NCBI GenBank assembly: GCA_036400975.1
Contig: DASWWL010000110.1
Coordinates: forward strand, 8,550 to 72,549
Direction: 5' to 3'
From: Novosphingobium sp.
Lineage (GTDB): Bacteria > Pseudomonadota > Alphaproteobacteria > Sphingomonadales > Sphingomonadaceae
DNA: 64,000 nt
Shown: piece by piece, positions 25,165-46,837 of the stretch
Layout of the letters: each line of letters starts with the position of its first letter
How positions within the stretch are numbered: position 1 is the first letter of the stretch
Made by a program: the position numbers and the translations under genes
The notes under the pieces: generated by a model
What the model saw: only the letters and a program-made list of their open reading frames with translations
Databases searched by the model: none
Told to the model about the DNA's origin: nothing

Positions 25165-25209
25165 AGAGCACCAGCAGCAGCCACAAAATGTTGCTCTTTT
25201 TGGTGCTCT
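25165..25209. repeat. Putative integrase arm-type binding sites
   Basis: TGTTGCTCT-TTT-TGGTGCTCT direct repeat (25189-25209) plus inverted AGAGCACCA (25165-25173), between the tRNA and int. Confidence 0.55.
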
Positions 25210-25241
25210 CGGATCGACCCGGCTTTGCTGGGAAAACGACC

Positions 25242-26471
25242 ATGCTGACCTACATCCAGATCAATGCCGCCAAGCCGAAAGCGAAGGCTTGGACCCTGAG
25301 CGATTCACAAGGCCTCCATCTCCAGATCCAACCCAACGGCTCTAAGCTCTGGCGCTTCAAGTATCGGTTCCTGGATAAGCAGAAGACGCTCCATCTTGGA
25401 GGATGGCCGCAGGTAAGCCTGGCCGACGCCCGCGTGCAGCGTGACGAGGCGAAAAAGAAGATCGCGGAAGGGATCGATCCGGCGCTGGAGAAAAAGCGCG
25501 CCAGGATCGCTGCCAAGTACGCTGCTGCCAACACCTTTGAGGCGGTGGCGCAGGAATGGCTTGTTAAATGCGAGCGGGATGGCCTCGCGCCGGTGACTGT
25601 CGACAAGATCCGCTGGCTACTCGCCAAGGCGTACCCAGTGATCGGCACCATCCCCATCGCGCAAATCACACCCCATGAAGCACTCGCCGTCCTGCGCAAG
25701 GTCGAGGCGACAGGCGCCTATGAAAGCGCACGGCGAATGCGGAGCGTCCTTAGCCGCGTCTTCCGATATGGCGTCGCGACTGTGCGATGCGACAAGGATG
25801 TCGCGGCCGATCTACGCGGGGCAATCGCCGCGCCGAAGGTCAAGCACTTCGCCGCCATCACCAAGCCCTCCGAAGTGGGCGCCCTACTGCGGGCCATCGA
25901 CGGGTATACCGGGCACAAGGTGACAGTAATGGCCATGCGCCTGTCTCCGCACGTTCTACTGCGCCCTGGCGAGCTTCGGCAGACCGAATGGTCCGACATC
26001 GACTTCGATGAAGCCATCTGGTTCATTCCCGCCGAACGGATGAAGATGCGCCGCCCCCACCGCGTGCCACTGTCACGGCAGGTGATCGCAATGCTGAAGG
26101 AACTGCACGAGCACACGCATTGGTGGAAGTATCTGTTTCCCTGCCTCGGCAAGCCGCGCAAGCCGATGTCGGAGAATGCCGTCAACCAAGGCCTGCGCAA
26201 GCTCGGCTACACCACTGACCAGATGACTGCGCATGGATTCCGGGCAATGGCCGCCACGCTTCTCAACGAGATGGGCGAATGGAACCCCGACGCGATCGAG
26301 CGGCAACTCGCGCATGTCGATACCAACCAGGTTCGGCGGGCCTACGCCCGCGGCGAATATTGGGATGAGCGTGTGCAGATGATGCAGCGCTGGTCCGACT
26401 ATCTCGACGAACTGCGCGATGGCGGCAAAATCCTCCGGCCCAGCTTCCCGGCGACACGACGCGCATCCTGA
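25242..26471 (+). CDS. int: P4-like tyrosine integrase with N-terminal Arm DNA-binding domain
   Basis: LSDSQGLHLQIQPNGSKLWRFKYR arm domain; LLRPGELR, HGFR, QLAH, RRAY catalytic motifs. Confidence 0.95.
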   Translation: MLTYIQINAAKPKAKAWTLSDSQGLHLQIQPNGSKLWRFKYRFLDKQKTLHLGGWPQVSLADARVQRDEAKKKIAEGIDPALEKKRARIAAKYAAANTFEAVAQEWLVKCERDGLAPVTVDKIRWLLAKAYPVIGTIPIAQITPHEALAVLRKVEATGAYESARRMRSVLSRVFRYGVATVRCDKDVAADLRGAIAAPKVKHFAAITKPSEVGALLRAIDGYTGHKVTVMAMRLSPHVLLRPGELRQTEWSDIDFDEAIWFIPAERMKMRRPHRVPLSRQVIAMLKELHEHTHWWKYLFPCLGKPRKPMSENAVNQGLRKLGYTTDQMTAHGFRAMAATLLNEMGEWNPDAIERQLAHVDTNQVRRAYARGEYWDERVQMMQRWSDYLDELRDGGKILRPSFPATRRAS

Positions 26472-26483: not shown

Positions 26484-26519
26484 ACGTGCTGGCGGTCGTC
26501 GACTGCCAGCACGTTCTTT
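26484..26519 (+). terminator. Probable intrinsic terminator after the integrase
   Basis: ACGTGCTGGC/GCCAGCACGT 10-bp arms plus inner stem, followed by TCTTT. Confidence 0.65.
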
Positions 26520-26534: not shown

Positions 26535-26611
26535 TTACGGCTGATCGTGGGACGAAGCCGCCATTCGTCATCCTGGCTGTGAATGGCGGGTTCTCGATGG
26601 AGCAGACGTCC
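26535..26611. repeat. Junction palindrome pair A (12-7-12 family)
   Basis: GAATGGCGGGTT-CTCGATG-GAGCAGACGTCC (26581-26611); 14 nt upstream, a second copy ends in AAGCCGCCATTC (26555-26566). Confidence 0.5.
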
Positions 26612-26760
26612 GCGGCGCTCAAACAGTCAGCAGCGCCCTCCTCGCGGGTGAGGGGCGAATCATCCTTGCATCTGTCTCTCGTGAAGCTGCTAGCTCTGAA
26701 GCACCAGCAGCCAATCGTTCCCAGACCATCCGATATGACGTGGCCGCAAGGCGCAGCCAG

Positions 26761-26991
26761 CTAAGTGGCGCCTGCTTCGGCGGCAATAAGCATCCCATAC
26801 CATTGTCCGGTAACGGTGCGGATCATTAACATCGGCCTATCGTCTGCTTCGGGCTGAAGCCGATAGCGGTCGTGATCGGCATTATTCTCGAGCCAATGCC
26901 GCGCCCAGGTCAGCGCTGCAAATTCGCTATCGAGGTCGCCGTTCTTCACCGCGATACTGCCGTTGTCCTCGCGCACTAACTTCCATTCCAT
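26761..26991 (-). CDS. Hypothetical protein (76 aa)
   Basis: GGAGG RBS; protein-like composition; divergent from hsp20. Confidence 0.65.
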   Translation of the reverse strand: MEWKLVREDNGSIAVKNGDLDSEFAALTWARHWLENNADHDRYRLQPEADDRPMLMIRTVTGQWYGMLIAAEAGAT

Positions 26992-27154
26992 AGCCTTGAA
27001 CCTCCGTTCTCGGGATGAATCGCCGGGTAAATTTGCGAAGCGAGATCAGGTTCCTACGCACTTACTGACGCCTCGGCAGCGCAGTATCCGCTCCCTGCTC
27101 ATTTTTTTCGCCGAAACATCTTGAAAGCCGCGCGACTAAAATTAGCTCAATGAT

Positions 27155-27255
27155 ACCGGACGCCAAACCGGGTCCGGTTGGACATCGAGAGCGCCGGCTC
27201 TTGGTTACCGGCGCATCTCATGCCCAAATTGCTTCGTTTGGAGGATTTGGAGATG
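27155..27255 (+). promoter_or_regulatory. ROSE-type RNA thermometer in the hsp20 5' UTR
   Basis: Hairpins ACCGGAC/GTCCGGT and GCGCCGG/CCGGCGC, then CCAAA-TTGCT-TC-GTTT-GG-AGGA-TTTGG, where the ROSE UUGCU motif with bulged G pairs with the SD. CTTGAA sigma32-like -35 at 27120; -10 is poor. Confidence 0.85.
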
Positions 27256-27726
27256 AGACCGAACTTTGACTTTACCCCCTATCGCCGATCGACGGTCGGT
27301 TTCGACCGGCTGTTCAACCTGCTCGAGGCGGGCGCGCGCGAGGACGATGGCTATCCGCCTTTCGACATCCAGCGGCTCGACGACGACAATTTTCGCATCA
27401 CCGTTGCGGTCGCCGGCTTCAAGCCGGAGGATATCGAGATCGTCGCGCATCAGAACCTGCTCTCGGTGACTGGCAAGCGTGCCGATGACGCCGACAAGGT
27501 CGAATACCTGCATCGCGGTATCGCGGCCCGGGCCTTCGAGCGGCGCTTCCAGCTCGCCGATTTCATCGAGGTCGGCAACGCGAACTTCGAGCACGGCCTC
27601 CTGTCGATCGAACTGACGCGCGTCGTGCCGGAGGCGATGAAGCCGCGTCGGATCGAGATCGGCGGCAATGCGTCCGACAACAAGCGACTGGGCGAGGTGA
27701 AGGAAAAGGCGAGCGAGCCTGCCTGA
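27253..27726 (+). CDS. ibpA: Small heat shock protein, IbpA class
   Basis: FDFTPYRRSTVGFDRLF, YPPFDI, YLHRGIAARAFERRFQLAD. Confidence 0.93.
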   Translation: MRPNFDFTPYRRSTVGFDRLFNLLEAGAREDDGYPPFDIQRLDDDNFRITVAVAGFKPEDIEIVAHQNLLSVTGKRADDADKVEYLHRGIAARAFERRFQLADFIEVGNANFEHGLLSIELTRVVPEAMKPRRIEIGGNASDNKRLGEVKEKASEPA

Positions 27727-27826
27727 GCCGCGTCCACTGGCCTGCCGGCGCCGCCTCCCGACACACCCCCGCACGCGGCGGCCGGCAGGTTCAGCCTTTC
27801 ATCCAGCCAGAAAAGGAGATGTCATC

Positions 27827-28342
27827 ATGGCAATTCGTGATCTCATTCCCTGGAGCCGGCAGGAAAACCGGCTGCCCGTTCCGGTGAGCGCCGAACGGGG
27901 AAGGGACACCCATCCACTGCAGTTGCTCCACCGCGACGTGAACCGTCTCTTCGACGATGTCTTCCGCAACTTCGGCATGCCCGCCTTTGCCGGTTTCGAC
28001 CGCTTGTCGGGATTGCCCCACCTCGAGCTCGGCGAGACCGACAAGGAAATTCGCGTGACGGCGGAACTGCCGGGTATGGACGAGAAGGACGTGGAGATTT
28101 TCGTCGAAGACGGCGCTTTGACCCTGCGCGGCGAAAAGAAGTCCGAAGTCGAGGACAAGGATCGCGGCTATTCGGAGCGCAGCTATGGCCGCTTCGAGCG
28201 CCGCATCGGCCTGCCCAGAGGCATCGAACGCGACAAGGTCGCGGCCACCTTCAAGAACGGCGTCCTCACGGTGACGTTACCCAGGACGGAGGCGGCGGAA
28301 CAGAACATCCGCCGGATTCCCGTCAATGGCGGCGCCCGCTGA
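27827..28342 (+). CDS. Hsp20/alpha-crystallin family protein (different class from ibpA)
   Basis: AELPGMDEKDV, ERSYGRFERRIGLP, ATFKNGVLTVTLP; AAGGAG RBS. Confidence 0.93.
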   Translation: MAIRDLIPWSRQENRLPVPVSAERGRDTHPLQLLHRDVNRLFDDVFRNFGMPAFAGFDRLSGLPHLELGETDKEIRVTAELPGMDEKDVEIFVEDGALTLRGEKKSEVEDKDRGYSERSYGRFERRIGLPRGIERDKVAATFKNGVLTVTLPRTEAAEQNIRRIPVNGGAR

Positions 28343-28808
28343 CGGCAGGGCCCGGACTTTCGAGTCCGGGCCTTCGGCCAACGACAACCTGGCGATTGCC
28401 CTGGCGGGTGCGACCTCGTTCCCGCACGGCGCCAAGGCGATCATCGAGCCGTTGGCCCTGGCGACAAACGGCGGCCGACGCCGCCAAAATCGCTGGCGGG
28501 TCAGGTTCGCGCCGCGCTGGGGCCCGGTTGCCGACCCGCTGATGGGTTGGACCGGCGGAGGCGATCCCCTCGCGACGATCGAGCTGCGCTTTCCCTACCG
28601 CGCCTCGGCCGAGCGATATTGTCAAAGGCAGGGTCTCATCTTCGAATGCCGGACGGCGCCATCGCCAGGCCAAATCCGTCCAGCTATCCCCGATGCCCTG
28701 GGTCCCGTGCTTTGCTGCTGGCCCACAGGCCCGCACGCCCTGTGCTGCGGCAATTTCCCTTGCGCCAGTACAGCCGCCAACGGCGAGGATGAACGCAGGT
28801 CTGCATAG
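28326..28808 (+). CDS. ETC complex I subunit / NDUFS4-like family protein
   Basis: WRVRF...DPLMGWTGGGDP...IELRF...AERYCQRQG. Start uncertain: a 9-bp hairpin (28349-28372) lies inside the 5' end. Confidence 0.7.
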   Translation: MAAPADGRARTFESGPSANDNLAIALAGATSFPHGAKAIIEPLALATNGGRRRQNRWRVRFAPRWGPVADPLMGWTGGGDPLATIELRFPYRASAERYCQRQGLIFECRTAPSPGQIRPAIPDALGPVLCCWPTGPHALCCGNFPCASTAANGEDERRSA

Positions 28809-28821
28809 CTTGGGGCGCGCT

Positions 28822-29236
28822 TCAGGTAGGCGAGGATTGCTTGTCAGAGCTCGCAGCGTGCGAGGGACGCTCGTGTCGATGCCATGCCTCGTCGAGGGCG
28901 GTGAGCACGCGGTCGATAACCGCCGCGTTGCTCGCCCCCTTGGGCAGTTCGCGAACCGCGAAATGCTGCAAAGCGGACAAGGTCCTTATTGGGCAAGCGA
29001 AGCTCGATCTGCTTCGTGGCCAGTTTGTTCGGCTCGATGCCTTGGGCGGCTCGGCCACAGGCCAGCATGTGATCGAGCAGCCATTTGCGTTGGGCAAAGG
29101 CCCCCCCAGCGCTCGCAGCTCGCGGGGCGAGATCGACAGAAGCGCATCGCGAACTCATGACGTCGCAAAACGGCAGGCGTACCGGCACATCGTCCGGCTT
29201 CGGCTTGCGCCACCGCTCAAGCAGATGGCGCGTCAC
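28822..29236 (-). pseudogene. Hypothetical gene downstream of usg, possibly frameshifted near 28985
   Basis: GTG overlaps the usg stop. After LRLPN the more typical codons continue in the adjacent frame (TLSALQHFAVRELPKG...RVLTALDEAW). Confidence 0.35.
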
Positions 29237-29502
29237 CGGATATCGATCACGCCATCGACCGCGCGCCACTCGGTGGGGCGGATCATCCCCTCATGCGAAA
29301 TGCACACAGAGTGAAGCGCGGCCTCGATCTCGCGCCGCCAGTGATCGAGGAACTCAAACAGCACCGGGAAATCGGGCGCGAGATCGTACTCCTGCCAGAC
29401 GAACAACTGCAGCAGCGAGGGCGCATCGGGACGGTAGTAGTGGATCTCTGCCGTCGTCAGCCGACAGCCCTCTAGCTGCACGATGAAGTCCCACCGGCTC
29501 AT
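29233..29502 (-). CDS. usg: Usg family protein
   Basis: [34 protein letters not shown]...[12 protein letters not shown]. Confidence 0.88.
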
Positions 29503-29735
29503 GGCGAAGCTCTGGAACCTTCCGCGGGCCTGTCGAGCGCATGCATGGCGGCAAGGATGTCATCGATCGGCACCGCCCGCTTGGCGCCGGGCGGCTTGCG
29601 CATTGCGGGCTGGTCACGGACCGCGACACGGTCGGACGCCCAGGACGCCAGGATGGCGCGTTTCACTTCCGGCTCCAGGCTCGGGTTGTGTGCAACGTCG
29701 AAGGGATGAAGATAACGGGAAAACGGCTGCGACAT
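29499..29735 (-). CDS. Conserved hypothetical protein upstream of usg
   Basis: HPFDV...[12 protein letters not shown]-type motif (here [13 protein letters not shown]); GGAGG RBS; ATGA-coupled to usg. Confidence 0.75.
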
Positions 29736-29864
29736 GGCTGTGCCTCCTTCCTTGGTGTCGCTCCTTTTTCATCTGTGGGCGCAGCGCCCACGCCGGGAAT
29801 TTTGGAACGCAGCCGAGTCGCGTCAAGAGGGAAAGTCGCTTCGGAACAACTTGATATGCTGCGC

Positions 29865-29891
29865 TTGGCACTCAGCGGTTACGAGTGCCAA
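29865..29891. promoter_or_regulatory. CIRCE element (HrcA operator)
   Basis: TTGGCACTC-N9-GAGTGCCAA perfect inverted repeat upstream of groES. Confidence 0.92.
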
Positions 29892-30005
29892 ATTTTTTCG
29901 CGCACCATCTTGACGCAAAAAATGACCTTTCTTAATTCCGCGTCACCTGTCGTTCGAAGGATTGGCAGGTTTATCACATCTCAGTTTTGCATCTGGAGGT
30001 TATGC

Positions 30006-32001
<1,996 letters not shown>

Positions 32002-32056
32002 TACACGAGGGCCCGGCTGCGGCCGGGTCCCATCATCGAATATGAGGAACTCGACG

Positions 32057-32242
32057 ATGAAAGACCATTATCTGCGCTACCTCGAGCGCGAACATACGCG
32101 ACTCGAAGCTGAAATCCGAGAGGAAGAGAAGCGACCTCTGCCGCGCCATTTCCTGATCGGCCGGCTCAAGAAGCTGAAGCTGGCGGTGAAGGATCAGATT
32201 GCCGCCTGCTCGGGACACAAGGCCGAGCGCGAAGCCGCTTGA
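32057..32242 (+). CDS. DUF465/YdcH-like small coiled-coil protein
   Basis: REHTRLEAEIREE...IGRLKKLKLAVKDQI; GAGG RBS. Confidence 0.8.
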   Translation: MKDHYLRYLEREHTRLEAEIREEEKRPLPRHFLIGRLKKLKLAVKDQIAACSGHKAEREAA

Positions 32243-32378
32243 GCGAGAGTTCGGTGCGGACGATCTGCGCAGGTGCCCGCCGCTTCCCGGTAGCGAGCGT
32301 TTGCCGGAAACCCGATGGCGCCCATCTGCGTTGCATGATCGTCGGCCTCGTTCGGGGAAGCTCGCGAGGATGGATAGG

Positions 32379-32415
32379 GGAGCCCCGAGCCAGCCGCCGG
32401 GGCTCCTTTCCCTTT
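32379..32415 (+). terminator. Possible terminator of the groESL-DUF465 unit
   Basis: GGAGCCCCG/CGGGGCTCC 9-bp stem followed by TTTCCCTTT. Confidence 0.5.
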
Positions 32416-32444
32416 CAGCAGTAGGTAAAGCCAGGAACTTGGCA

Positions 32445-32657
32445 ATGCACTGGCGCGTGACGAAACGGCTGCCCGCAGCTAGCGAGAATGGCCGGAAGCA
32501 CATCATCGTACAGATGGAGAAAGGCGAGGAAATCGATTTCATTTTGGAGGCCGGTCTGGCGGTGACGCGCCTCCCTGACGGCACCTTTTGTATCGACGAG
32601 ACGGGCGAAATCATCCGAACCGCTGGCTCGATGGTGGTCAAAACCGAACGGTTTTGA
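32445..32657 (+). CDS. Hypothetical protein (70 aa)
   Basis: AGGA RBS; MHWRVTKRLP...FCIDETGEIIR. Confidence 0.5.
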   Translation: MHWRVTKRLPAASENGRKHIIVQMEKGEEIDFILEAGLAVTRLPDGTFCIDETGEIIRTAGSMVVKTERF

Positions 32658-32881
32658 CACCAAGGCTTTAGCCGCTCCGCCGTCATGCTGGTCACGCCCG
32701 CTGCCTCGGCCTCAGCCATCATTAGTTGGCACACACTGCCGCAGAATGACTGCCTCGTCCCGCCTCTTCACACACGGCATGCGAGACAGCCAGACAGCCC
32801 ATAATGGCGGTTCTCGGGGTCAGCGGCGAGCCCCAGCATTATCAGGATGCGGCACTCTGCGATCATCCCTTTGATTAGTCC

Positions 32882-32912
32882 GAACGGCAGTTTCCGCCGC
32901 GAGCGGACGTTC
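32882..32912. repeat. Junction palindrome B (12-7-12 family)
   Basis: GAACGGCAGTTT-CCGCCGC-GAGCGGACGTTC, about 115 bp upstream of the small recombinase. Confidence 0.55.
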
Positions 32913-33026
32913 GCGAGGGCGGCGCTGAGCGACCGACTCTGGTCGGCACGAGCCCCACAGCAAGTCCCGCGCATCCTCGTCGGCAAGCGTTCTGCAGATG
33001 GCCAATGTGGCCATAGGAGAACGATC

Positions 33027-33658
33027 ATGGAGATGCCTGAAACAGAACTCACTGCCACCAAGCGCCCGGTTTGGAATGCCGGAAGGACCGTGGGTGCAAA
33101 GCGGGCTCTGAAACCGAAGCAGATTTGGGAAATCAGATTCTATCTCAATCAGCGCCGCCGCCTGCGAGATCGGGCGCTGTTCGATCTGGCGATCGACAGC
33201 AAGCTTCGGGGCTGCGACCTGGTTCAGATGAAGATCGGCGACCTTGTCAGCGGCGGGCAGATCCGAACGCGGGCAATCGTAATGCAGCAGAAGACAGGCC
33301 CCCCGTTCAGTTCGAGCTGCTGCCAGATGCTCGGGCGAGCTTGCTGGCATGGCTCGAACGCCGAGGCGGCACGGTGGACGATTATGTGTTCCCGAGCAGG
33401 GTTGATCACAATGGGCACCTGAGCACACGGCAGTATGCTCGGCTTGTCGACGAATGGGTGACAGGGGTCGGCCTTATGCGAAGCGAGTATGGCACCCATT
33501 CGCTTCGGCGAACGAAGGCATCGATCATCTACAGGGCGACCGGCAATCTGCGAGCTGTCCAAATCCTTCTTGGTCATAGCAAGATCGAGAATACGGTGCG
33601 GTATTTCGGGATCGACGTGGAAGACGCGCTCGCGCTTGCCGAAAACACCGAGATCTGA
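33027..33658 (+). pseudogene. Small catalytic-domain-only tyrosine recombinase, frameshifted by one missing base
   Basis: AGGAG RBS; DSKLRGCDL...QQKTG in one frame, PVQFE...GTHSLRRT...LLGH...TVRY in another; shift at the C6 run 33299-33304. Confidence 0.9.
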
Positions 33659-33689
33659 ATCCTTGGCGCCCGTTTCCGGTAGAAGCCGG

Positions 33690-33766
33690 ACACGGGCGCT
33701 TGGGGACAATTCCTGCCGATCACCGCCGCGACTGGGAACGCCCGGTTACGCCGACACCGGCCATTC
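33690..33766. repeat. Junction palindrome pair D (12-7-12 family)
   Basis: GAACGCCCGGTT-ACGCCGA-CACCGGCCATTC (33736-33766); a more degenerate copy ends 14 nt upstream (33690-33721). Confidence 0.5.
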
Positions 33767-33876
33767 CTGTACGGGCTTATGGGCATTCTCCCAGGTCCGG
33801 GCCGTTGGACTTTGCGGATCTTCTGGAATTGAGGGCTGGCGTGCGCCAAGCTGATGTGCAGCCGATAGGCGTTTCT

Positions 33877-35127
33877 TCAAGCCCCGCCGAACTTCGGCGC
33901 CTTCGCGAAGTCGGCCTTGCCGAAGGGGCGGTCGGTGAACAGGTAGCCGTAGTAGAATTCGCGAAGCCGGCGGTGGTAGTCGCGGATGCGATCCTGGTAG
34001 GCCAGTTGCGCCCGGAGGTCGGTTCCGGCTAGCCGCGTGAGCAGCGCCTGGAGCCCGACCGGCGGCAGAACCCACCCAAGGGTCCGCGCCGCGCCGTCGC
34101 GCTGCTCCAGCCCCGCGCGGTAGGCTTGCACCCGGTCGGCCACGCTCTCGTCGCCCACCTGGTGGAAGGCGAGATACCACTTGTAGTGGAAGTCCGGGCC
34201 GAGCGGGGACGAGTTCGCCCACTTCGGATGATTGGCGTAGAACTGCCGCATGGTATCCTCGCGCGGGATTTCCCAGGCGGCGTTCACTTTCTCGCGCTGG
34301 GCGAGCGCAATCTCGGCGCCCTGGTCGACGGGGACGGCGCTGTTGATCGTGACGTGCGCCAGCGTGGGCAGTACGAGCGTCAGGACCAGCCAGCAGGCGG
34401 CGAGCGTCGCGGCGTTGGCGACCGACGACCACGCAAGTCGGCCGACCAGGAGCGCCAGCGCGATCCAGAACAGGAGGTAGGCGGCCGAGGCGAGGACGAT
34501 CAGCACGATCGATCCAGCCGCCGCACCCGAAGCCATCGCGGCGGTCGCGAACGGCAGGACGACGACCGCGAACAGAATGCCGAAGCGCAATGCCACCCGC
34601 CGCAGCCACAGTCCCCTTGCCCCCGGCAGCGCCGACAACATTCGCTCGCGCCCCGCCTCGCGCTCGCCCGAAACCAGATCGTGGAACAGAGCGATGACGA
34701 ACAGCGGCGCGAGGAAGACGAGCAGGAACGAGAAGTCGAACCGTCCCGGTAGCGCTAGCTCGGGGTTGAACACGTCTCCGTCGTAGATCTGGGCCTCGAG
34801 CCCGAGCGCGCGCACGCGCAGGATGTAGGGCGAGACATCGCGCATGCCGATCGCCGCGAAGGCAAGCGGCGACGGCGCGTCCCAGGTTGGGTGGAAAGAG
34901 TAGTAGGCGGCGCTGCCGGCGTCCTTGCCCTTGTCGATCCAGGCGGCGATCGCGGCGATGTCTTCCTTCTGCGGCTCCGCGATGGCCGTGATCGCCGTAC
35001 GCTGGCGATCGACTTCTGCCGTTCCGGCAATGACCGCAGCAACGCTCAGCGCACCGAGCAGGACGATCGCGATCAGCGCCAGCCGGGCGCGGAACAACAG
35101 CTGCAGCTCGTGCATCCAGATGCGCAT
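33877..35127 (-). CDS. ABC transporter permease with DUF3526-like domain
   Basis: HDLVSGEREAG ABC-2 motif, multiple TMs, HYKWYLAFHQVGD; TGATG overlap. Confidence 0.8.
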   Translation of the reverse strand: MRIWMHELQLLFRARLALIAIVLLGALSVAAVIAGTAEVDRQRTAITAIAEPQKEDIAAIAAWIDKGKDAGSAAYYSFHPTWDAPSPLAFAAIGMRDVSPYILRVRALGLEAQIYDGDVFNPELALPGRFDFSFLLVFLAPLFVIALFHDLVSGEREAGRERMLSALPGARGLWLRRVALRFGILFAVVVLPFATAAMASGAAAGSIVLIVLASAAYLLFWIALALLVGRLAWSSVANAATLAACWLVLTLVLPTLAHVTINSAVPVDQGAEIALAQREKVNAAWEIPREDTMRQFYANHPKWANSSPLGPDFHYKWYLAFHQVGDESVADRVQAYRAGLEQRDGAARTLGWVLPPVGLQALLTRLAGTDLRAQLAYQDRIRDYHRRLREFYYGYLFTDRPFGKADFAKAPKFGGA

Positions 35128-36563
35128 CAGCGGGCTCCCAGGCGGTGAGTGGCGATGAACAGGGCGGCGACTGTCAGGGCGAGCCACAGCGCCAGCACGC
35201 TCAGCCCCGGCAGCGCCGCCGCGGCAAGCGCCGATCCCGCCGGCGCGCGATATGCGAAGTCGGGCATGGCCTGCCAGTTCTTGGCCGACACGCGCTTGCG
35301 CCGATCGGCATCCGCGTCCCTGGCCGTATCGTCGGCGAAGCTGACAGAGTCGGCCTGCAGCCTGTTCAGCCGCTGGACCAGATCGTAGCGGTAGGCTTCG
35401 GCCTGTTCGAGGAAGCGGCGGTGGCCGGCGAAATCGGTGCCCGCCGCGGCCATCGACATGGATCGCAGCGCGATCGCCGGACTGAGCACGCCGATCGACC
35501 GAACCATCTCGTTCTGCCGCGCCTGCGCGTCGTAGCTTTGCGCGGCATGACGATCGAACAGCTCAGAGGTCAGCCGCTCACCCTCGACACCGAGAACGCC
35601 CTTGTAGTTCACCGGCAGATCCTCGACCCGCTTGACGCCATACTGATCGAGCACCGATTGCTTGAACTTGGCAAAGTGCGGATCGTCGGGATTGTGGCTG
35701 TCGCCCATTGTGCGCAGGTCGCGCGCGACGGCGATGTCGGTTTGCAGGCGATTGCTCAGCGGCACGGAGGCGCCGGCGACGTCGGGCGCGATGCGCGGGA
35801 GCAGGACGACCAGCACAGCCCAGAGCGCCAGCAGCGCGAGCAGCGCGTCGCGGCTGCGCCTCACCAGCACCGAGACCAGCAGGATCAGCACGGCCCATAG
35901 CGCGAGATAGACGCCGTAGCCGAGCGCGATCACCGCCATGGGCGCGGCTTGGGCACCGGGCTGGCCCGCGATCAGTGCGAAACCGAGCATGGCCGGCAGC
36001 CCAGCCAGCAGGGCCACCAGCCCCAGCGCGCCGAGCTTGCCGGTGACGATCTGGCCACGCGACGCCCCCTGCAGCATCAGCGGCCGCAAGGTGCCGCGTT
36101 CGCGTTCGCGCGCGATGGCGCCATAGCCGAGGAAGATCAGCAGCAGCGGCGCGACCGCCTGCAGCACGAAGGCCGGCGTGAGCTGGCCGAAGCGGATCAG
36201 CAGCGAGCTCTGCCGCACGTCGCCGAAATTTGCGGTGTTCTGCCGGTGGCCTTCGAGGAACATCGAGTTGCCGGTGAAGGCGTCAACGCCGGGATCGAAA
36301 GCCGCAAGCGGGCCGAGCGGCCGGAAGATGAACGTGCCGTAGTGGACCACGCGGTGCGGGTGGCGGTTGGGCTGCGCATCGAAGGCGTGGTCCGCCGCGG
36401 CCTGGTGGCGCTCGCGCAGCGCGTCGATGCCTTGCCGATGGCTCCAGGCGGTGATCACCGCGGTCAGCGTCAGCAGGACTAGCAGCACGAAGGCGACGAC
36501 GGCGACCCGGTTGCGGCGCATCAGCCGAAGCTCGTCGCGGGCGATCAGCAGAGCGGGCCTCAT
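35127..36563 (-). CDS. ABC transporter permease with DUF3526-like domain
   Basis: HPHRVVHYG, LEGHRQN, AIARERERGTL, GDSHNPDDPHF. Confidence 0.82.
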   Translation of the reverse strand: MRPALLIARDELRLMRRNRVAVVAFVLLVLLTLTAVITAWSHRQGIDALRERHQAAADHAFDAQPNRHPHRVVHYGTFIFRPLGPLAAFDPGVDAFTGNSMFLEGHRQNTANFGDVRQSSLLIRFGQLTPAFVLQAVAPLLLIFLGYGAIARERERGTLRPLMLQGASRGQIVTGKLGALGLVALLAGLPAMLGFALIAGQPGAQAAPMAVIALGYGVYLALWAVLILLVSVLVRRSRDALLALLALWAVLVVLLPRIAPDVAGASVPLSNRLQTDIAVARDLRTMGDSHNPDDPHFAKFKQSVLDQYGVKRVEDLPVNYKGVLGVEGERLTSELFDRHAAQSYDAQARQNEMVRSIGVLSPAIALRSMSMAAAGTDFAGHRRFLEQAEAYRYDLVQRLNRLQADSVSFADDTARDADADRRKRVSAKNWQAMPDFAYRAPAGSALAAAALPGLSVLALWLALTVAALFIATHRLGAR

Positions 36564-37294
36564 ATCGCCGTAACGTCCCCGGCGAAGCGTGCGTGGAGGG
36601 CGCGCAGGTCGAAGCGCTCGCTGCCTGCCGCTTCGACCTCGTCAACGATCCGGCCTGCGTCGATGAAGCCGATGCGATCGGCAACGTCGACCGCGCTTAT
36701 CAGGTCATGGGTCACCATCAGCACCGCGGTCCCGCGCTCGCGCACCGAGGCGACGAGCGCATTGAAATCGCCCGTGGCGCGCGGATCGAGACCCGAGGTC
36801 GGCTCGTCCAGCAGCAACACCGGCACTTCGCGCAGCAAGGCCACCGCGATCGCCACCTTCTGTCGCATGCCCTTGGAGAAGCCGCCGAGCCGCTGGTCCC
36901 AGGCGCGCCCCTGAAGGCCCGCAGCGGCGAAGGCGCCGGTGATGGCATGGCGCGGCTTGGGCTCGCCCGACAGCGCCAGCAGGTAGTCGGCGTTCTCGAT
37001 CGCGGTCAGATGCTCGTAGAGCGCGACGTTCTCGGGCAGATAGGCGATCCGCTGGCGGGCGGCATCCGCCTGCGCGACGGGATCGAGACCGGCCACCCGC
37101 ACAGCGCCCGCGTCGGGTCTGGCGAAGCCGAGCAGAACCGAAAGCGTTGTCGATTTGCCCGCGCCGTTGCCGCCGAGCAAGGCATAGATCGTGCCGCGAT
37201 CGACCTGCAGAGTCAGACCGTCGAGCACACGGTGGGTCCCATAGGACAGGCTGACGCCGGACAGTTCGATGGGAGCAGGGGCGGGCTCTGACAT
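36560..37294 (-). CDS. ABC transporter ATP-binding protein
   Basis: GGNGAGKS Walker A, FSKGMRQK, LLLDEPTSGLDP; GGAGG RBS before MSEP. Confidence 0.93.
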   Translation of the reverse strand: MSEPAPAPIELSGVSLSYGTHRVLDGLTLQVDRGTIYALLGGNGAGKSTTLSVLLGFARPDAGAVRVAGLDPVAQADAARQRIAYLPENVALYEHLTAIENADYLLALSGEPKPRHAITGAFAAAGLQGRAWDQRLGGFSKGMRQKVAIAVALLREVPVLLLDEPTSGLDPRATGDFNALVASVRERGTAVLMVTHDLISAVDVADRIGFIDAGRIVDEVEAAGSERFDLRALHARFAGDVTAI

Positions 37295-37348
37295 GGGTCC
37301 TCCTTCGTGGTGACGCCTTGTTGCGTTCGGGATCGTGACGGTCAAGAG

Positions 37349-37366
37349 GATATGTTAGAACATATC
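37349..37366. promoter_or_regulatory. Zur box
   Basis: GATATGTT-AG-AACATATC palindrome; 17/18 to the recalled alphaproteobacterial consensus GATATGTTATAACATATC; between divergent ABC and TBDR genes. Confidence 0.75.
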
Positions 37367-37431
37367 ATTTGACGGCGTCGCGCCGCCTTACTAGGCGCGT
37401 GATACATCATATCATGACTGCGGGGGTAACA

Positions 37432-39519
37432 ATGACTGCGTGGACGCGCTGGCTGATTTCGAGTGCGCTGCTGGTTCCGGTGCCGGTTCTGGCGGAGGAG
37501 AGCGAAGGCGCGGAGCACGAGGGCGACCAGATCGTCGTTACCGGCTCGCGCGAGGCGAACGCCAGCATCAACGGGCTCTCGATCGCGCCGATCCTGCTGC
37601 CGCAGAACGTGCGCGTGCTCGACAGGACGATCGTCGAGCAGGCCGGCTTCACCGACCTGTCGCAGCTCTTCGATCTCGCCGGCGGCATGGCGCGGCAGAA
37701 CAGTTTCGGCGGCGCCTGGGATGCCTATGCGATCCGCGGCTTTTCGGGCGACATCAACCAGGGCCCGGACCTGCTGATCAACCGATTCACTGCAAATCGC
37801 GGCTTTAACGCTCGGCGCGACGTCGCCACGGTCGAAAGCTTCCAGGTGCTCAAGGGCCCGGCTTCGGCACTCTCGGGCAAAGGCGAGCCGGGCGGCTCGA
37901 TCAACGTCGTGACCAAGGCGCCTCAGGAAACCTTCCACGCCTCGAGCGAGCTGTCCTACGGCAGTTTCGATACCTACCGCGGCGTCTTCGACATCGGCGG
38001 CCCGGCCGGTGACGGCCTGTCGGCGCGCGCCATCGGCGTCTATCAGGATGGCGACAGCTTCCGCGACTTCAACAAGACCGACCGGCTGCTCTTCGCGCCT
38101 TCGATCGCCTGGAAGCTCGGTGACAGCGTCCGCTTCCTCTACCAGCTCGAATACAACCTGGTGCACTTCACACACGACCGCGGCATCGTCGCGGTGGCGG
38201 GCAATGCCAAGGCGTTGCCGCGCAGCCGTTTCCTCGGCGAGCCCAACGACGGGCAGATCACCCAGCGCACCGCCCAGCATCAGGGCACGGTCTACGTCGA
38301 TCTTGCCGAAGGCGTCGCTCTCGAAGCCGGCGTGCAATATCGCGATGGCCGGATGTCGGGACAGTCGACGCACAACGCGACGCTGGTCGGCACCACCCTG
38401 CGCCGCCAGCTGCGCATTCACGACTACGACTGGCGGGACCTGTCGGGCCGCGTCGAGCTGAGCGCCAACGGCAATTTCCTCGGGCTCGAACACCAGTTCC
38501 GCATGGGCGGCGACGCTTTCAAATATGACCAGCGGCGCGTGTTCTACCGGTTCAGCCCGACGGCTGCGAACCCCTACGGCATCGACATCTTCAATCCGGT
38601 CTATGGGCAGCCCAAGCCGGTCGCGACGCTCAACCAGGACCTGCTCGAACAGCTCCGCGGCGAAAGCATCTATGCGCAGGATCTGATGACGCTGGGCGAT
38701 CGCTTCTCGCTGCTGCTCGGCGTTCGGCACGACTGGATCCGTCAGGCCAACGTCAACTATCGGACCAATCGCACCGACCGCCAGTCGCCCTCGGTCACCT
38801 CGCCCCGCGCGGCCTTCACTTTCGCGCCGAGCGAGAACTTTTCGGCCTATGTCAGCTGGGGCAAGTCGTTCCGCTTCAACCAGGGCGTGGACTTCTTCTC
38901 TAACACCTTCGCCCCCGAACGCGGCGAAGCGCTCGAAGGCGGCGTGAAATTTGCGCTCGCCGACAATCGGCTGGCCGGCACGGTCTCGCTGTTCCGGATC
39001 ACCAAGGACAATGTGCTGGTCACCGATCCCGATCCCACGCACAGCGGCTTCTCGATCGCCGCCGGCCGGGCGCGGAGCAAGGGCATCGAGGCCGATCTCA
39101 ACTACCGCTTCGGCGACCGGCTCACTCTGACCGCAGTCTATGCCTACACCGATGCCAAGGTAATCGAGGACACGCGCCCGGCGCTCCTCGGCAGCGGCCT
39201 GTCGAATGTGCCGAAGCACAGCGGCGCGATCTACGGCTTCTGGCAGTCGAACGGCAAGGAACCCGGCTCGATCGGCCTCGGCGCCGGGCTGACCTATGTC
39301 GGCGAGCGGCCGGGCGACGACGTGGCCACCGGCTTTCGCCTGCCCGACTACGTCACCGCCAGGCTCAACCTCTCCTACCAGCTTACACGTGGTCTGAAGG
39401 CGCATCTCGATTTCGAGAACCTCTTCGACAAGTATTACATCGAGAGCTCTTACAGCGACGTCTGGATCACCCCGGGCGCGCCGAGGACGGTTCGTGCAAG
39501 GATCGTGCTGGCGCTGTGA
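37432..39519 (+). CDS. TonB-dependent receptor
   Basis: Signal peptide, IVVTG, LPQNVRV plug, IRGF, VLKGPASALSG, NLFDKYY, terminal aromatic-like strand. Start 37414 is also possible. Confidence 0.92.
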   Translation: MTAWTRWLISSALLVPVPVLAEESEGAEHEGDQIVVTGSREANASINGLSIAPILLPQNVRVLDRTIVEQAGFTDLSQLFDLAGGMARQNSFGGAWDAYAIRGFSGDINQGPDLLINRFTANRGFNARRDVATVESFQVLKGPASALSGKGEPGGSINVVTKAPQETFHASSELSYGSFDTYRGVFDIGGPAGDGLSARAIGVYQDGDSFRDFNKTDRLLFAPSIAWKLGDSVRFLYQLEYNLVHFTHDRGIVAVAGNAKALPRSRFLGEPNDGQITQRTAQHQGTVYVDLAEGVALEAGVQYRDGRMSGQSTHNATLVGTTLRRQLRIHDYDWRDLSGRVELSANGNFLGLEHQFRMGGDAFKYDQRRVFYRFSPTAANPYGIDIFNPVYGQPKPVATLNQDLLEQLRGESIYAQDLMTLGDRFSLLLGVRHDWIRQANVNYRTNRTDRQSPSVTSPRAAFTFAPSENFSAYVSWGKSFRFNQGVDFFSNTFAPERGEALEGGVKFALADNRLAGTVSLFRITKDNVLVTDPDPTHSGFSIAAGRARSKGIEADLNYRFGDRLTLTAVYAYTDAKVIEDTRPALLGSGLSNVPKHSGAIYGFWQSNGKEPGSIGLGAGLTYVGERPGDDVATGFRLPDYVTARLNLSYQLTRGLKAHLDFENLFDKYYIESSYSDVWITPGAPRTVRARIVLAL

Positions 39520-41429
39520 AGAAGCTTGTTTCCGCAGTACTGCTCGCCTGGGGAGGCGGCGAAACACCCGCTTTCGCCCAGCGGACCGAAGACAACGCCG
39601 CCCGCGCGGCCGAGGACGGCTTCGGTTCTAGTGTCGGCAACGAATCGATCGGCATCTATGCGAGCGGACAGGTGCGTGGCTTCAGCGCGTCGGACGCCGG
39701 CAACAATCGGATCGAAGGGCTCTATTTCGACGAACAGGGCGGCGTCACCGACGTGATCGTCCGCGGCTCGAACGTGCGCCTCGGCCTCACGGCCTTCGGC
39801 TATCCGTTGCCCGCGCCGACCGGCATCGTCGACATGGAACTGCGCCGCACGGGCAGCGAAACGATCGCCAGCGTGCAGGTCGCCAGCGGCGAATATCTCG
39901 GAACCGACCTGACCGCGGATCTCGCGCTGCCGGTCAGCGACCGCTTCCGCATAAATCTCGATCTCGGACTGTTCGACGACCAGTATGTCAACGGCGCCAG
40001 CGCCTGGTTCGTCAGTTATGGCGGCGTCGCGCGGTGGAAGCCGGTCGACCGCGTCGAACTGACCGGCTTCTTCGGCCGCTATGATTACGGCGACGAGGAA
40101 CAGGGGCCAACGATCTACACCGCCGGCGCCTACCTGCCGCCGCGCATAGAGCGCCGCCGCTTCTTCGGCCAACAGTGGGCGCAGTGGAAGGGGCATGCCC
40201 AGAACTACGGCGCCATGCTCAAGGCCGATCTCGGTGCGTGGGAGATCGCGGCGGGGGCGTTCAACAGCCGATTCACCCGCGACGACTACGCCTCGCCCTA
40301 TTTCGACGGTGTCGGAAAGGAGGGCATCGGCCGCTCCTTCGTTGTCAGCGGCCGCGACCAGCGTGCCGCCTCGACCTCGGGCGAGATTCGCGTGAGCCGG
40401 ACCTTCGCCGAAGGACCGCGGCGGCACCGCGTGCTGGTCTCGGCACGCGGGCGCAGTGTGGAAACCGACTATGGGGGCTACGACGTCGCCGATCTCGGCC
40501 TCGGCACGATTGGCGTACCTTCGCCGGTGTTGGAGCCCGACTTCGCCTATGGCTCGCTGACGCACGACCGCGTGCGGCAATTGAGCTATGCCATAGGCTA
40601 TGAGATGCGCTGGCCGCGCGTCGCCGAGCTCAACCTTGGCCTTACCCGCACCGACTATCGCAAGCGGATCGACCAGCCGGGCCTGCCCCGTGCCAGCCAG
40701 CGCGACCGGCCGTGGCTATGGAACGCCGCGCTGGCATTGACGCCGACCAGCCGTCTGACCCTCTATGCCGCGACCACGCGCGGGCTTGAGGAAAGCGGAG
40801 TCGCGCCGAGCAACGCGGTCAACCGCGGCGAGGCCTTGCCGGCGCTGCGCACGCGGCAATACGAATTCGGCGCGCGCTACACTGTCGGCGATTGGCGCTT
40901 CGTCGCCGCAGCCTTCGACATCGTCAAGCCCTATTTCGAGATCGACAGCAACGACGGGGCTTACAAACAGCTTGGATCGGTCACGCACCGCGGCGTCGAG
41001 GGATCGCTCTCGGCAAAGCCATTGCCCGGCCTCAATGTCGTCGTCGGCGCGGTCGTGCTCCGCCCGCGGGTGAGCGGGCAGGCGGTCGCGGACGGCCGGC
41101 TCGGTCGCAGGCCGATCGGACGCACCGGGCTGCTCGTCGATGCGGCGATCGACTATCAACTCGCCGCCTTGCCGGGTTTCTCGCTCGACGCCCGCATCAT
41201 CCACGAAGGTCGCCGGATCGCCAACGCCGCCGACACCCTGTCGATCCCGGCGCGAACGGTGGTCGATCTGGGCGCACGCTATCGCACGAAGATCGGCGGC
41301 GTCCCGACCATGTTCAGAGCGCAGGTCCGCAACATCGGCGACGTCTTCGGCTGGAAAGTGTCTAGCGGCGGCGGCTTCTCGCTACAGACGGGGCGACGGG
41401 CTGTCGTGTCGGCTACCGCTGATTTCTAG
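39516..41429 (+). CDS. Second TonB-dependent receptor-like outer membrane protein
   Basis: GTGA overlap; VRGFS...NRIEGLYFD short plug; beta-barrel pattern ending SATADF. Confidence 0.8.
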   Translation: MKKLVSAVLLAWGGGETPAFAQRTEDNAARAAEDGFGSSVGNESIGIYASGQVRGFSASDAGNNRIEGLYFDEQGGVTDVIVRGSNVRLGLTAFGYPLPAPTGIVDMELRRTGSETIASVQVASGEYLGTDLTADLALPVSDRFRINLDLGLFDDQYVNGASAWFVSYGGVARWKPVDRVELTGFFGRYDYGDEEQGPTIYTAGAYLPPRIERRRFFGQQWAQWKGHAQNYGAMLKADLGAWEIAAGAFNSRFTRDDYASPYFDGVGKEGIGRSFVVSGRDQRAASTSGEIRVSRTFAEGPRRHRVLVSARGRSVETDYGGYDVADLGLGTIGVPSPVLEPDFAYGSLTHDRVRQLSYAIGYEMRWPRVAELNLGLTRTDYRKRIDQPGLPRASQRDRPWLWNAALALTPTSRLTLYAATTRGLEESGVAPSNAVNRGEALPALRTRQYEFGARYTVGDWRFVAAAFDIVKPYFEIDSNDGAYKQLGSVTHRGVEGSLSAKPLPGLNVVVGAVVLRPRVSGQAVADGRLGRRPIGRTGLLVDAAIDYQLAALPGFSLDARIIHEGRRIANAADTLSIPARTVVDLGARYRTKIGGVPTMFRAQVRNIGDVFGWKVSSGGGFSLQTGRRAVVSATADF

Positions 41430-41597
41430 CACAACGAGATTTGCGCGATGGGGAGATTTAGAAATCTTTGGTGACCCAGCGATCGAACCTACGGGCTGCG
41501 GTTTGCAGCACCTGCACGAAGGGCAGATTGTGAAGTTCGTCAAGAGCCCGCTACGACGCTTTGTTGGCGGATATCGCCGGATGGCCCGGCGTAACCC

Positions 41598-41654
41598 GAA
41601 TGACTGCTCTTGTCAGATTGCGATGTTCGCGCCGCCAGAAACGAACGTCGCAAT
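41598..41654. repeat. Junction palindrome pair C (12-7-12 family)
   Basis: GAATGACTGCTC-TTGTCAG-ATTGCGATGTTC (41598-41628), then after 14 nt GAACGTCGCAAT (41643-41654). Confidence 0.5.
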
Positions 41655-41688
41655 TTGGTCGATAGTCGCCAGACCCATGAGTCCGGCA

Positions 41689-42609
41689 TTACCTACCGAT
41701 TGCAGCATTCAACCTGCCCCTCAGATCAGCATGCTTCCCAGGGTTTGCCTTCATCAGCTTCCTGAGATTGATCAGTTTCCACCGAACCGCCGGGAGATCG
41801 GCCGCTTCAGGTAAACCGATCAGGCTGAAGTCAGGCTGCGCTTCGTGGAGGGACAGGAGAAATTCGGCGGCGGGGCCATCGATCCGAGCCCGGATACCCT
41901 CGATCAGACGCTCGCGGGCGGAGAGAAGCGTTTCGAGCGGCACATGCTCGATCGTCATGCCGTCGAATTCCTGCGCGAAGGCGCGGTCAATATCGATGCG
42001 GTTGGGATCGATCAGTTCGTGGGCCGGGCGGCCCGAGCATGCGGAATAGACCAGGAAAGTGCGGAACAGGTCGTCGTCGATGCCTTCGTGCTGATAGAGC
42101 AGATGGATGTCATACAAGTCCCGTGGATGCTGGCGATCGAGTGCCGCGCAGATCTTGCCGGCATAGATGTCCTCGAAGGAAAGTACGGACATTTCAGCAA
42201 AGCCGAATGCTTCCTCCACCGCATCCGTAACCCGCATGGTGTGCGGCGCCTTCACGGTGCCTCGAAGGACAGGCGACACCTCTATCTTCACTTCGGCATC
42301 GGCGGAACGGAGGAGCACCCGGGTATCGCCATCGCCCCCGCCGCTGATCCTTTGCGCATTGACGCCAGGAAGGCTCTTCCGTGCCCGTTCGACGATGCGG
42401 TCGAAGGCGGCATCGATGTTGGCGAGGGCAGTTTCGCGGTCGTGGAGCGGCACGTAGGTCAGGTCGATGTCGACTGAGAGCCGCGGCATGTCCCGGTAAA
42501 AGAGATTGATCGCCGTGCCGCCCTTCAGTGCGAAATCCGGCTCGTCGGCCACGATGGGGATTGCGCTCACCAGGAGGCTGACTTGGGCTGCATAGCGTTC
42601 ACGCGCCAT
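41689..42609 (-). CDS. abiEii: AbiEii-type nucleotidyltransferase toxin (type IV TA)
   Basis: FALKGGTAINLF...RLSVDIDL, GKICAALDRQHPRDLYD. Confidence 0.92.
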   Translation of the reverse strand: MARERYAAQVSLLVSAIPIVADEPDFALKGGTAINLFYRDMPRLSVDIDLTYVPLHDRETALANIDAAFDRIVERARKSLPGVNAQRISGGGDGDTRVLLRSADAEVKIEVSPVLRGTVKAPHTMRVTDAVEEAFGFAEMSVLSFEDIYAGKICAALDRQHPRDLYDIHLLYQHEGIDDDLFRTFLVYSACSGRPAHELIDPNRIDIDRAFAQEFDGMTIEHVPLETLLSARERLIEGIRARIDGPAAEFLLSLHEAQPDFSLIGLPEAADLPAVRWKLINLRKLMKANPGKHADLRGRLNAAIGR

Positions 42610-43438
42610 CGCCAACCTCATTGGCTGGCTCGGGCGCCGCAAACTCCTCTGGCACGACGAGTTGATAGGCTGCCGCATAGCGACCGCCTTCGACCAGCAT
42701 GCGCGGACCCTTGCCCATATCGACCCCAGAGCGATCGATATGCGGCAGCCACCGGTGCCGATGGCGATCGGCAAACAGGAAGAACAGCCGCCTCACCTTT
42801 ATGCTCTTGCAGGCGCCCAGCAAGGCACTCAGCCGACCGGGGCGCAGCGTCGCCAGTCCCTGGAAAAGCATGTCGACCTTGTGGAAGCTCTCCTGGTCGG
42901 GAAGTTCGTTCAAGGCTTCGAGCACCGCGCGCTCTGGGGTTGAGCGCCGCAACGGCCAGTCCCAGGGGTTGGGTCCAGTACCTGCCGCGGGGTCGAAATC
43001 ATTGTTCTCGATTCCAAGAGAGTCCGAACCGAACAACTGCCGTCGCCGCATCAAGATGTGCGCATCGAGAGTTAGCCGGGACAGCCAGGACGGTGCGTCG
43101 CCGTAGAGATAGACGTCCGCGCTGCGGCCAAGGCCGAGATAGTGGTTGTACCCTTCAAGGCTCAGCGCGCTCATGCCGCCGACGTGGAAATCATAACCCA
43201 TGATCCACTGGGCGGAGAGCACCGCCATCTTCCATTCGACAACGTTTCCCGGTGGCTTGCCCGGGTAGGGCCGGCGATAGACGCCGCGTGCGACACGCTC
43301 GAGCCAGCCTTCTCGATCGTAGCTCGCTGCGGAACTCTTGGCGACGTCATGGGCACTCAACCATTGCGAGTCGACCAGGAAGCCAGCCGGAACCCGATCA
43401 AGGACATATTTTAGTCGATTGCGATTTGGTTCAGCCAT
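42599..43438 (-). CDS. abiEi: AbiEi-type antitoxin / transcriptional regulator
   Basis: WLERVARGVYRRP, STPERAVLE, CKSIKVRRLF; overlaps the toxin start. Confidence 0.88.
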   Translation of the reverse strand: MAEPNRNRLKYVLDRVPAGFLVDSQWLSAHDVAKSSAASYDREGWLERVARGVYRRPYPGKPPGNVVEWKMAVLSAQWIMGYDFHVGGMSALSLEGYNHYLGLGRSADVYLYGDAPSWLSRLTLDAHILMRRRQLFGSDSLGIENNDFDPAAGTGPNPWDWPLRRSTPERAVLEALNELPDQESFHKVDMLFQGLATLRPGRLSALLGACKSIKVRRLFFLFADRHRHRWLPHIDRSGVDMGKGPRMLVEGGRYAAAYQLVVPEEFAAPEPANEVGDGA

Positions 43439-43555: not shown

Positions 43556-43577
43556 CGGATCACCACGCCCAGTTCGG

Positions 43578-43993: not shown

Positions 43994-43995
43994 AG

Positions 43996-46834: not shown

Positions 46835-46837
46835 GGC

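Follow-up and report, generated by a model that had tools for sequence, protein, structure and literature searches.

The 64,000-nucleotide stretch of DNA analysed here (the window) comes from Novosphingobium sp. (assembly GCA_036400975.1, contig DASWWL010000110.1, positions 8,550 to 72,549), and its positions 26548-41661 are probably an array of two cassettes that belongs to a site-specific system for gene cassettes spread widely through the Sphingomonadales. The array comprises four composite sites, two of a left type (L1 and L2) and two of a right type (R1 and R2), which bound two multi-gene cargo modules and, between them, the gene of a small tyrosine recombinase, all within an integrative and conjugative element (ICE). 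A preliminary description of the region had proposed, on the basis of four 31-bp palindromic elements with 12-nt arms around a 7-nt spacer (12-7-12), that these elements are the target sites of the recombinase, that the modules are cassettes and that the whole is an integron-like platform within an ICE. The comparative data presented below support that proposal, and they move the likely point of exchange out of the palindrome and into a nearby hexamer.

Four composite sites in the array

All four sites lie on the plus strand. L1 (26548..26611) reads, from left to right, TGGGAC, a 13-nt arm A, a 14-nt spacer, a 12-nt arm B, a 7-nt spacer and a 12-nt arm C, while L2 (33702..33766), also of the left type, carries the hexamer GGGGAC and one additional base ahead of arm A. 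The right-type sites are mirror images of this arrangement: R1 (32882..32945) consists of a 12-nt arm, a 7-nt spacer, a second 12-nt arm, a 14-nt spacer, a 13-nt arm A' and the hexamer TGGTCG, and R2 (41598..41661) has the geometry and the hexamer of R1. The four 31-bp elements are present as previously described, at 26581, 32882, 33736 and 41598, the first and third being the B-7-C parts of L1 and L2, respectively. The second copy of the motif that had been noticed exactly 14 nt away at three junctions is also real, and occurs at all four sites as a third, 13-nt arm that lies 14 nt from the palindrome and adjoins the hexamer; complementarity between facing arms reaches 12/13 at 26554/26581 and 14/16 at 41614/41642. 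The weaker partial copies also listed fared less well, since 33666-33699 is the terminator hairpin of the recombinase gene and 32744-32832 obtains no score in either of the two profiles that follow.

These profiles were built from other genomes only and used to scan the 3.1-Mb sphingomonad assembly that is the source of the window. The L profile (nhmmer) started from recombinase-downstream sites and, after one iteration on the comparative loci, was based on 96 sites; the R profile was made from 49 recombinase-upstream sites. With the L profile, L1 ranked first genome-wide (26548-26612, E 3.7e-5) and L2 third (33703-33766, E 7.8e-4), the second rank going to a match at 32877-32913 (E 6.8e-4). 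With the R profile, R1 ranked first (32881-32945, E 4e-7) and R2 second (41597-41661, E 5e-5), ahead of a following hit with E 0.056. Beyond the four array sites there was no comparable match in the 3.1-Mb genome (next hits E 0.04-0.06), so that here the motif is confined to the array. Because profiles built solely from other genomes rank these four at the top, all four elements are, on this sequence evidence, genuine sites. Two lone 12-7-12-like palindromes elsewhere (G000, C143:8146-8178 and C84:5284-5317) score weakly with both profiles (E 0.04-0.4); hexamer and third arm are absent from both, which may be chance matches or relics.

The initial reading had been that the elements were chance similarities. 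Their mismatches to the consensus of the preliminary description, which is essentially the 32882 copy, number 0, 3, 4 and 6, and their 12-7-12 arm complementarity is 6, 8, 9 and 4 of 12. When the 32882 copy serves as query, the other three reach 19, 17 and 13-15 of 24, levels attained genome-wide by 4, 54 and 1466 sites. Such consensus mismatches and leave-one-out counts left 41598 at chance level and the rest borderline, and it was the out-of-genome profiles that overturned this reading. Two other assignments were discarded. The element at 41598 is not a reversed L-type site, for which the minus-strand hit (41596-41650) has an E-value of only 1.0, and is instead of the R type; R1, which lies some 150 nt 5' of the recombinase start codon, had been taken for a decayed L site or a plain operator and was re-read as a mirror-image R site.

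The consensus of the L profile is T-GGGAC, nttgCnGcCgTTC (13 nt), 14 nt, GAAcGgCaGgTt, 7 nt (t.GcCAa) and AAgCcGaCaTTC. Across the sites, the hexamer is TGGGAC at left-type sites and TGGTCG, or TGGGTC in one clade, at right-type sites. The 13 nt immediately outside the array at each end also resemble half-sites: on the left, TTACGGCTGATCG (26535..26547, plus strand), the outer arm of the L1 core on its backbone side, agrees with GAAYGNCNG at 5/7 specified positions, and on the right, ATAGTCGCCAGAC (41662..41674, plus strand), the corresponding backbone-side arm of the R2 core, is similar to arm A (CGCCAGAC versus CGCCATTC). A semi-conserved outer arm is found at the R sites of other loci too, where an arm similar to GCTGCCGG recurs to the right of the R hexamers.

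Site grammar and spread across Sphingomonadales

For comparison, 80 recombinase loci were taken from named genomes, almost all of them Sphingomonadales and all selected for carrying the recombinase. Nucleotide homology of these loci to the window is limited to the recombinase gene and about 100-150 nt on either side, and alignments of these flanks place a composite element at fixed positions 5' and 3' of the gene in most loci and in many genera. The position of R1 is conserved in about 50 loci, and the L2 site is kept 3' of the recombinase in about 45. Members of this recombinase family are bordered by such composite sites in dozens of Sphingomonadales genomes.

The arrangement of sites in the 80 loci follows a strict grammar. 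Sites are almost always oriented with the recombinase (85 L and 97 R sites, that is 182/190, against 8 reversed), and they define 44 L...R cassettes of 0.9-9.9 kb as well as 39 cases of the order R-recombinase-L. In a further 10 cases an R site is followed directly by an L site, and in the tight ones the hexamers lie 19-29 nt apart, a distance that corresponds to two outer arms. Where an L site is not preceded by a recombinase, its outer 13 nt agree with GAAYGNCNG at 4.62/7 positions on average, against a background of 2.1, and 25/40 of these outer left arms (62%) show at least five half-site matches, compared with 3% of background.

At E <= 1e-60, the recombinase is found in 82/301 genomes of the family and in 58/112 genera, with up to 4 copies per genome and in two identity classes. 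A strict L-site pattern gave 68 hits in 43 genomes versus about 20 hits with the reversed control. Site and recombinase clearly occur together in a genome where the enzyme is closely related: an exact-pattern site is present in 10/12 genomes whose recombinase is >90% identical, versus 33/289 of the others. Over all genomes the association is weak (17/43 versus 65/258), and it is strong solely for this >90%-identity clade. The family also commonly has a second, larger recombinase clade (identity about 68-77%), and most genomes with this clade are without exact TGGGAC-pattern sites; it may use a variant site or hexamer.

Homology breaks at the hexamers

Comparisons between sites indicate where unrelated DNA has been joined. 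Thirteen site pairs share the left flank only, and in 6-7 of them identity ends no more than 3 nt past TGGGAC; in the remaining pairs the breakpoint cannot be fixed because their A arms are similar. In the single pair that shares the right flank only, homology begins exactly at TGGGAC. The window itself, when aligned with a related ICE in genome G242, loses homology at 26553, the end of TGGGAC. On the right-type side, loci L016 and L007 have a 4.6-kb cassette in common whose homology ends at TGGTCG, just upstream of the recombinase gene in L016 and at a place with no recombinase in L007.

From these breaks we take the hexamers, and not the 7-nt spacer of the palindrome, to be the exchange points. 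The earlier proposals that the 12-7-12 palindrome is the crossover core and that indels should end in its spacer are accordingly not borne out: the hexamer at which junctions fall is 33 nt (L) or 27 nt (R) distant from it, which makes the palindrome an accessory element, and a crossover within the 14-nt spacer was likewise considered and rejected. Nor do the sites behave like folded attC hairpins, as had also been suggested. Complementarity between arms A and B is no greater within a site than between sites (6.92 versus 7.17; p 0.96), and the same is true of arms B and C (7.35 versus 7.35). Since the arms show no covariation, and it is arm sequence that is conserved, the arms are best described as repeated copies of a sequence-specific half-site, GAAYGNCNGnnnn, rather than as attC-like structures.

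A frameshifted recombinase with a catalytic domain only

The recombinase gene (33027..33658, plus strand) is a pseudogene, and is the only copy in this genome. Translated across two frames, it encodes a catalytic-domain-only tyrosine recombinase, in keeping with the preliminary description: PF00589 spans residues 28-195 of 211 (E 3.6e-20), placing it in the tyrosine recombinase superfamily, the R, K, HxxR, H and Y residues are present, and the motifs LRGCDL, QQKTG, HSLRRT, GHS and RY can be read across both halves, with the N-terminal domain absent. The lesion is a -1 frameshift caused by one base missing from a C6 run at 33299-33304. The read-through protein has more than 8000 homologues, many of them intact, 210 amino acids long and 90-98% identical; at the frameshift point homologues carry CCGCCCC or C7, and the allele P0003 has Gly-Pro-Pro. 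The frameshift may reflect homopolymer slippage, or an error of sequencing or assembly. Given the frameshift in the recombinase gene and the imperfect hexamer of L2, the copy of the system in the window is probably inactive and its array frozen.

By curated cut-offs, the enzyme is neither IntI, Xer nor FimB/E. It scores 20.3 bits with the integron integrase model TIGR02249 (cut-off 265) and 19.1 with NF011946 (cut-off 435), and 20.5 bits with the FimB/FimE-type invertase model NF007371 (cut-off 222). XerA/XerC are its best curated families at 57 bits, far under their cut-offs, with 56.9 bits for XerC (TIGR02224, cut-off 335) and 40.2 for XerD (cut-off 330). Its best PDB match is XerH, at an E-value of only 1.4e-5.

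Two further elements accompany the gene. Just 5' of its ribosome-binding site lies the palindrome ATGGCCA-ATG-TGGCCAT (32998..33014, plus strand); this 7-3-7 palindrome is kept in all loci (L001-L080), with compensatory GACCA/TGGTC changes in one clade, and could be an operator or a 5'-untranslated-region hairpin that controls the recombinase. Behind the gene stands the terminator hairpin (33666..33699, plus strand; 14-nt arms, 93% complementary), the structure of which is conserved across loci in two sequence variants.

The host ICE

The array is carried by an ICE that has a tRNA-adjacent integrase, a TrbI gene and a backbone 89-93% identical to that of the ICE in G242. Its integration target is a tRNA-Leu(CAG) gene identified by ARAGORN (24978..25064, plus strand), next to which a P4-type integrase of 427 amino acids is encoded (25188..26471, plus strand; Pfam Arm-DNA-bind_3, Phage_int_M and Phage_integrase), followed by a terminator-like hairpin 3' of the gene (26484..26514, plus strand; 15-nt arms, 93% complementary, 1-nt loop). 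Related ICEs were found, by means of the integrase flank, in G242 and in a second genome, G195, and their integrase genes are 89% and 85% identical to this one at the nucleotide level. In the G242 ICE, 89% identity over the integrase region runs up to position 26553 of the window, and identity returns at 43574, from where a conserved backbone with trb conjugation genes (43574..55634, with TrbI at 43996-45447 on the minus strand by Pfam) is 93% identical over 12 kb. In the G195 ICE, the integrase directly adjoins the trbI region and cargo is absent at the position of the array. From these two comparisons, the cargo that varies within this family of ICEs occupies 26553-43574.

The ICE of G242 carries, at the corresponding place in its backbone, a bare 13-6-13 core, TAACGACTGATTG-TGGGAC-AAAGCCGTCGTTC, in which TAACGACTGATTG is the counterpart of the outer left arm of L1, and which is broken by an insertion sequence (IS). 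The entire array thus appears to occupy a single core site of the tRNA-Leu ICE. The IS-like element of G242 (L108, G242:C19, 1414-2982; about 1.57 kb) sits exactly in TGGGAC of the ICE core; it has terminal inverted repeats GGCYGTGTAAAAACG and an open reading frame (ORF) of 464-490 amino acids, and GGGAC is duplicated at its insertion.

Just outside R2, between the array and the conserved backbone, lies an AbiEii/AbiEi toxin-antitoxin pair (41689..43438, minus strand; Pfam). This pair is missing from the G242 ICE, and the G195 ICE has an AbiEii (about 70% identity) at a different position. ARAGORN also reports, within the conserved trb region, a tRNA-Arg(TCG) of 90 nt on the minus strand (50928-51017); its length is unusual, and it could be either a spurious prediction or a tRNA carried by the ICE.

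Cargo of the two cassettes

The two cassettes flank the frameshifted recombinase on its left and right, and the genes named here were assigned by Pfam. Cassette 1 (26612..32881, plus strand) carries heat-shock functions: two Hsp20 genes (27178-27726 and 27827-28342), GroES (about 30030-30320) and GroEL (30376-32001), with a gene for an NDUFS4-like protein, from a family of complex I accessory subunits, between the Hsp20 genes and GroES/GroEL (28326-28808), as well as unknown ORFs. A 5.5-kb stretch of this cassette is 90.6% identical to a cassette in L026, which preserves the Hsp20/NDUFS4-like/GroES-GroEL arrangement and has it between other inner flanks.

The genes of cassette 2 (33767..41597) are distributed over both strands: a pair of DUF3526/ABC-2 permeases (33877-35187 and 35127-36563) and an ABC ATPase (36560-37345) are encoded on the minus strand, and two TonB-dependent receptors (37369-39519 and 39516-41429) on the plus strand. 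In a flank-based search for empty sites through 300 family genomes, homologues of the ABC module were found in other genomes without sites. Cargo in the system as a whole is diverse, in that 93 ORFs from 23 units match 90 different Pfam families.

A model for cassette movement and its alternatives

The architecture of the sites suggests how such a system could work. Together, the hexamer, the inner arm and the outer arm would form a classical 13-6-13 tyrosine-recombinase core, with the 12-7-12 palindrome as an accessory element 14 nt inward of the core, within the cassette. Recombinase dimers bound to the accessory palindromes may help to load protomers onto the core arms, strand exchange would take place within the hexamers, and cassettes would be excised as circles and re-inserted at any compatible core, whether beside the recombinase gene, beside another cassette, or at an orphan core, an example of which lies 3' of the integrase gene in this ICE family. 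Candidate pairings for the reaction are L x L, R x R and L x R. In the window, the heat-shock cassette, the recombinase and the transporter/receptor cassette would together fill that ICE core.

Several observations weigh against such a cassette system. The L hexamer (TGGGAC) differs from the R hexamers (TGGTCG/TGGGTC), and because of this difference a plain attL x attR excision, in which the overlaps would be identical, does not fit. The arms next to the recombinase gene, to the left of its L site and to the right of its R site, are barely above background. About 33 genomes with hits to the strict pattern lack a close recombinase, and the reversed-pattern control by itself gave some 20 hits. 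Neither an excised circle nor a pair of empty and occupied alleles came to light in the genomes compared, and the one recombinase in this genome is a pseudogene. Finally, in these recombinase-anchored loci, 15/19 intervals between successive co-oriented L sites hold a recombinase, as for self-contained elements.

This last count bears directly on an alternative that we consider unlikely, in which the units are small self-contained integrative elements, similar to integrative and mobilizable elements (IMEs), each with cargo and its own recombinase and stacked in tandem at one attachment site, while units that lack a recombinase would have arisen by decay. The tandem units of L012 and L019, which contain two recombinases, agree with it, as does the joint movement of recombinase, terminator and L hexamer as a highly conserved block. 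What speaks for cassettes instead is that units without a recombinase, and with L and R ends of their own, lie 3' of the recombinase, for example in L004, L005, L010, L018, L021, L023, L035 and L076, that R sites have the full core architecture and serve as breakpoints, and that the same recombinase block adjoins unrelated cargo on both sides, in a sample of loci that is biased towards the recombinase.

Cassettes could also be non-autonomous and transposon-like, with 58-bp terminal inverted composite repeats moved by a tyrosine transposase for which a TGGGWC-like sequence suffices as target, so that each end recreates a target and arrays result. The arms are indeed inverted at the two ends of a cassette while the hexamers are direct, the outer arms are only semi-conserved, and the hexamer is the sole invariant feature on the target side. 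This explanation seems distinctly improbable to us, since the 62% of outer left arms that match the half-site, versus 3% of background, point to specific cores rather than loose targets, and since sites outside the array are absent from this genome.

Inversion, multimer resolution or regulation, as in a shufflon, a FimB/E-type switch or an operator, would account for a recombinase of FimB/E size with a catalytic domain only, and the overlap of the R site with the region upstream of the recombinase makes autoregulation plausible. As a substitute for cassette mobility, such a role is very improbable: the near-uniform orientation of sites with the recombinase implies that inversion is not frequent, breakpoints at the hexamers join unrelated DNA, and the score with the invertase family is far below its cut-off. 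That the elements are chance GC-rich pseudo-palindromes and ordinary terminator hairpins with no tie to the recombinase, as arm complementarity of 4-9 of 12, the chance-level score of 41598 against 32882 alone and the real terminator hairpins at 26484-26514 and 33666-33699 might have suggested, is refuted by the out-of-genome profiles, which put exactly these four sites at the top, and by the conservation of the sites across genera.

Comparison with known systems

A site-specific cassette system of this kind is reminiscent of integrons, in which a tyrosine recombinase stands beside co-oriented variable cassettes with boundaries at a short invariant motif, as found here, each cassette has an imperfectly palindromic site, and the platform can ride on mobile elements. 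Unlike in integrons, however, the recombinase is without the IntI insertion and without an N-terminal domain (20 bits versus 265), and its gene lies between cassettes, whereas that of an integron lies at one end with attI and the cassette promoter Pc. Here it is site sequence that is conserved, nothing points to a folded single-strand substrate, and the integrated site is divided evenly over the two cassette ends. Whereas integron cassettes are mostly promoterless single ORFs expressed from Pc, those described here are multi-gene, 0.9-9.9 kb in size and have genes on both strands.

The pdif (Xer) modules of Acinetobacter are similar in that cargo is bounded by recombinase sites with inverted arms and strung on mobile replicons, with diverse accessory and toxin-antitoxin genes. 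Their recombination depends on XerC/XerD of the host and on simple 11-6-11 sites which neighbours have in common, whereas here there is a dedicated small recombinase and 64-bp composite sites with accessory palindromes and separate L and R cores. FimB/FimE-type enzymes likewise have about 200 amino acids and a catalytic domain only, but an invertible switch is missing here, sites and cassettes are co-oriented, and the family score is 20.5 versus 222 bits. With IMEs, and with tandem accretion at att sites, the system shares site-specific insertion by existing elements, hybrid junctions and a setting in or next to an ICE; in contrast to these, most cassettes are without their own recombinase, the very small recombinase module lies between cassettes, and both junctions retain full multi-arm sites. 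In geometry alone, the sites also resemble FRT, the target of Flp, with three repeated arms around a short spacer, and the sfx sites of the R64 shufflon, with a conserved core and one conserved arm, the other arm being poorly conserved; the recombinases and biological roles of those two systems are unrelated to the one described here.

Implications

We lean, by a modest degree, towards regarding the Sphingomonadales platform as a second, independently evolved form of cassette capture, in which a catalytic-domain-only recombinase moves multi-gene cassettes by way of double-stranded 13-6-13 cores, each aided by an accessory 12-7-12 palindrome, carried on ICEs and plasmids and present in about a quarter of the genomes of the family. 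A full-text search of the literature, with most subscription journals outside its reach, found no description of such a system. If this view is true, the platform would parallel integrons in function within the class to which the Sphingomonadales belong, where, to our knowledge, integrons themselves are rare or lacking; provided that the system is active, the cassette-array solution would have arisen more than once among tyrosine recombinases. The L and R profiles make the system searchable, and its unusually small recombinase and cleanly defined sites could serve as a compact recombination tool.

Sphingomonads play a major part in pollutant degradation and colonise plants and water systems. 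Modules found in the cassettes include chaperones, transporters, receptors, sensors and defence genes, and an active system of this kind would provide these bacteria with an undescribed route by which to assemble and exchange multi-gene adaptive modules.

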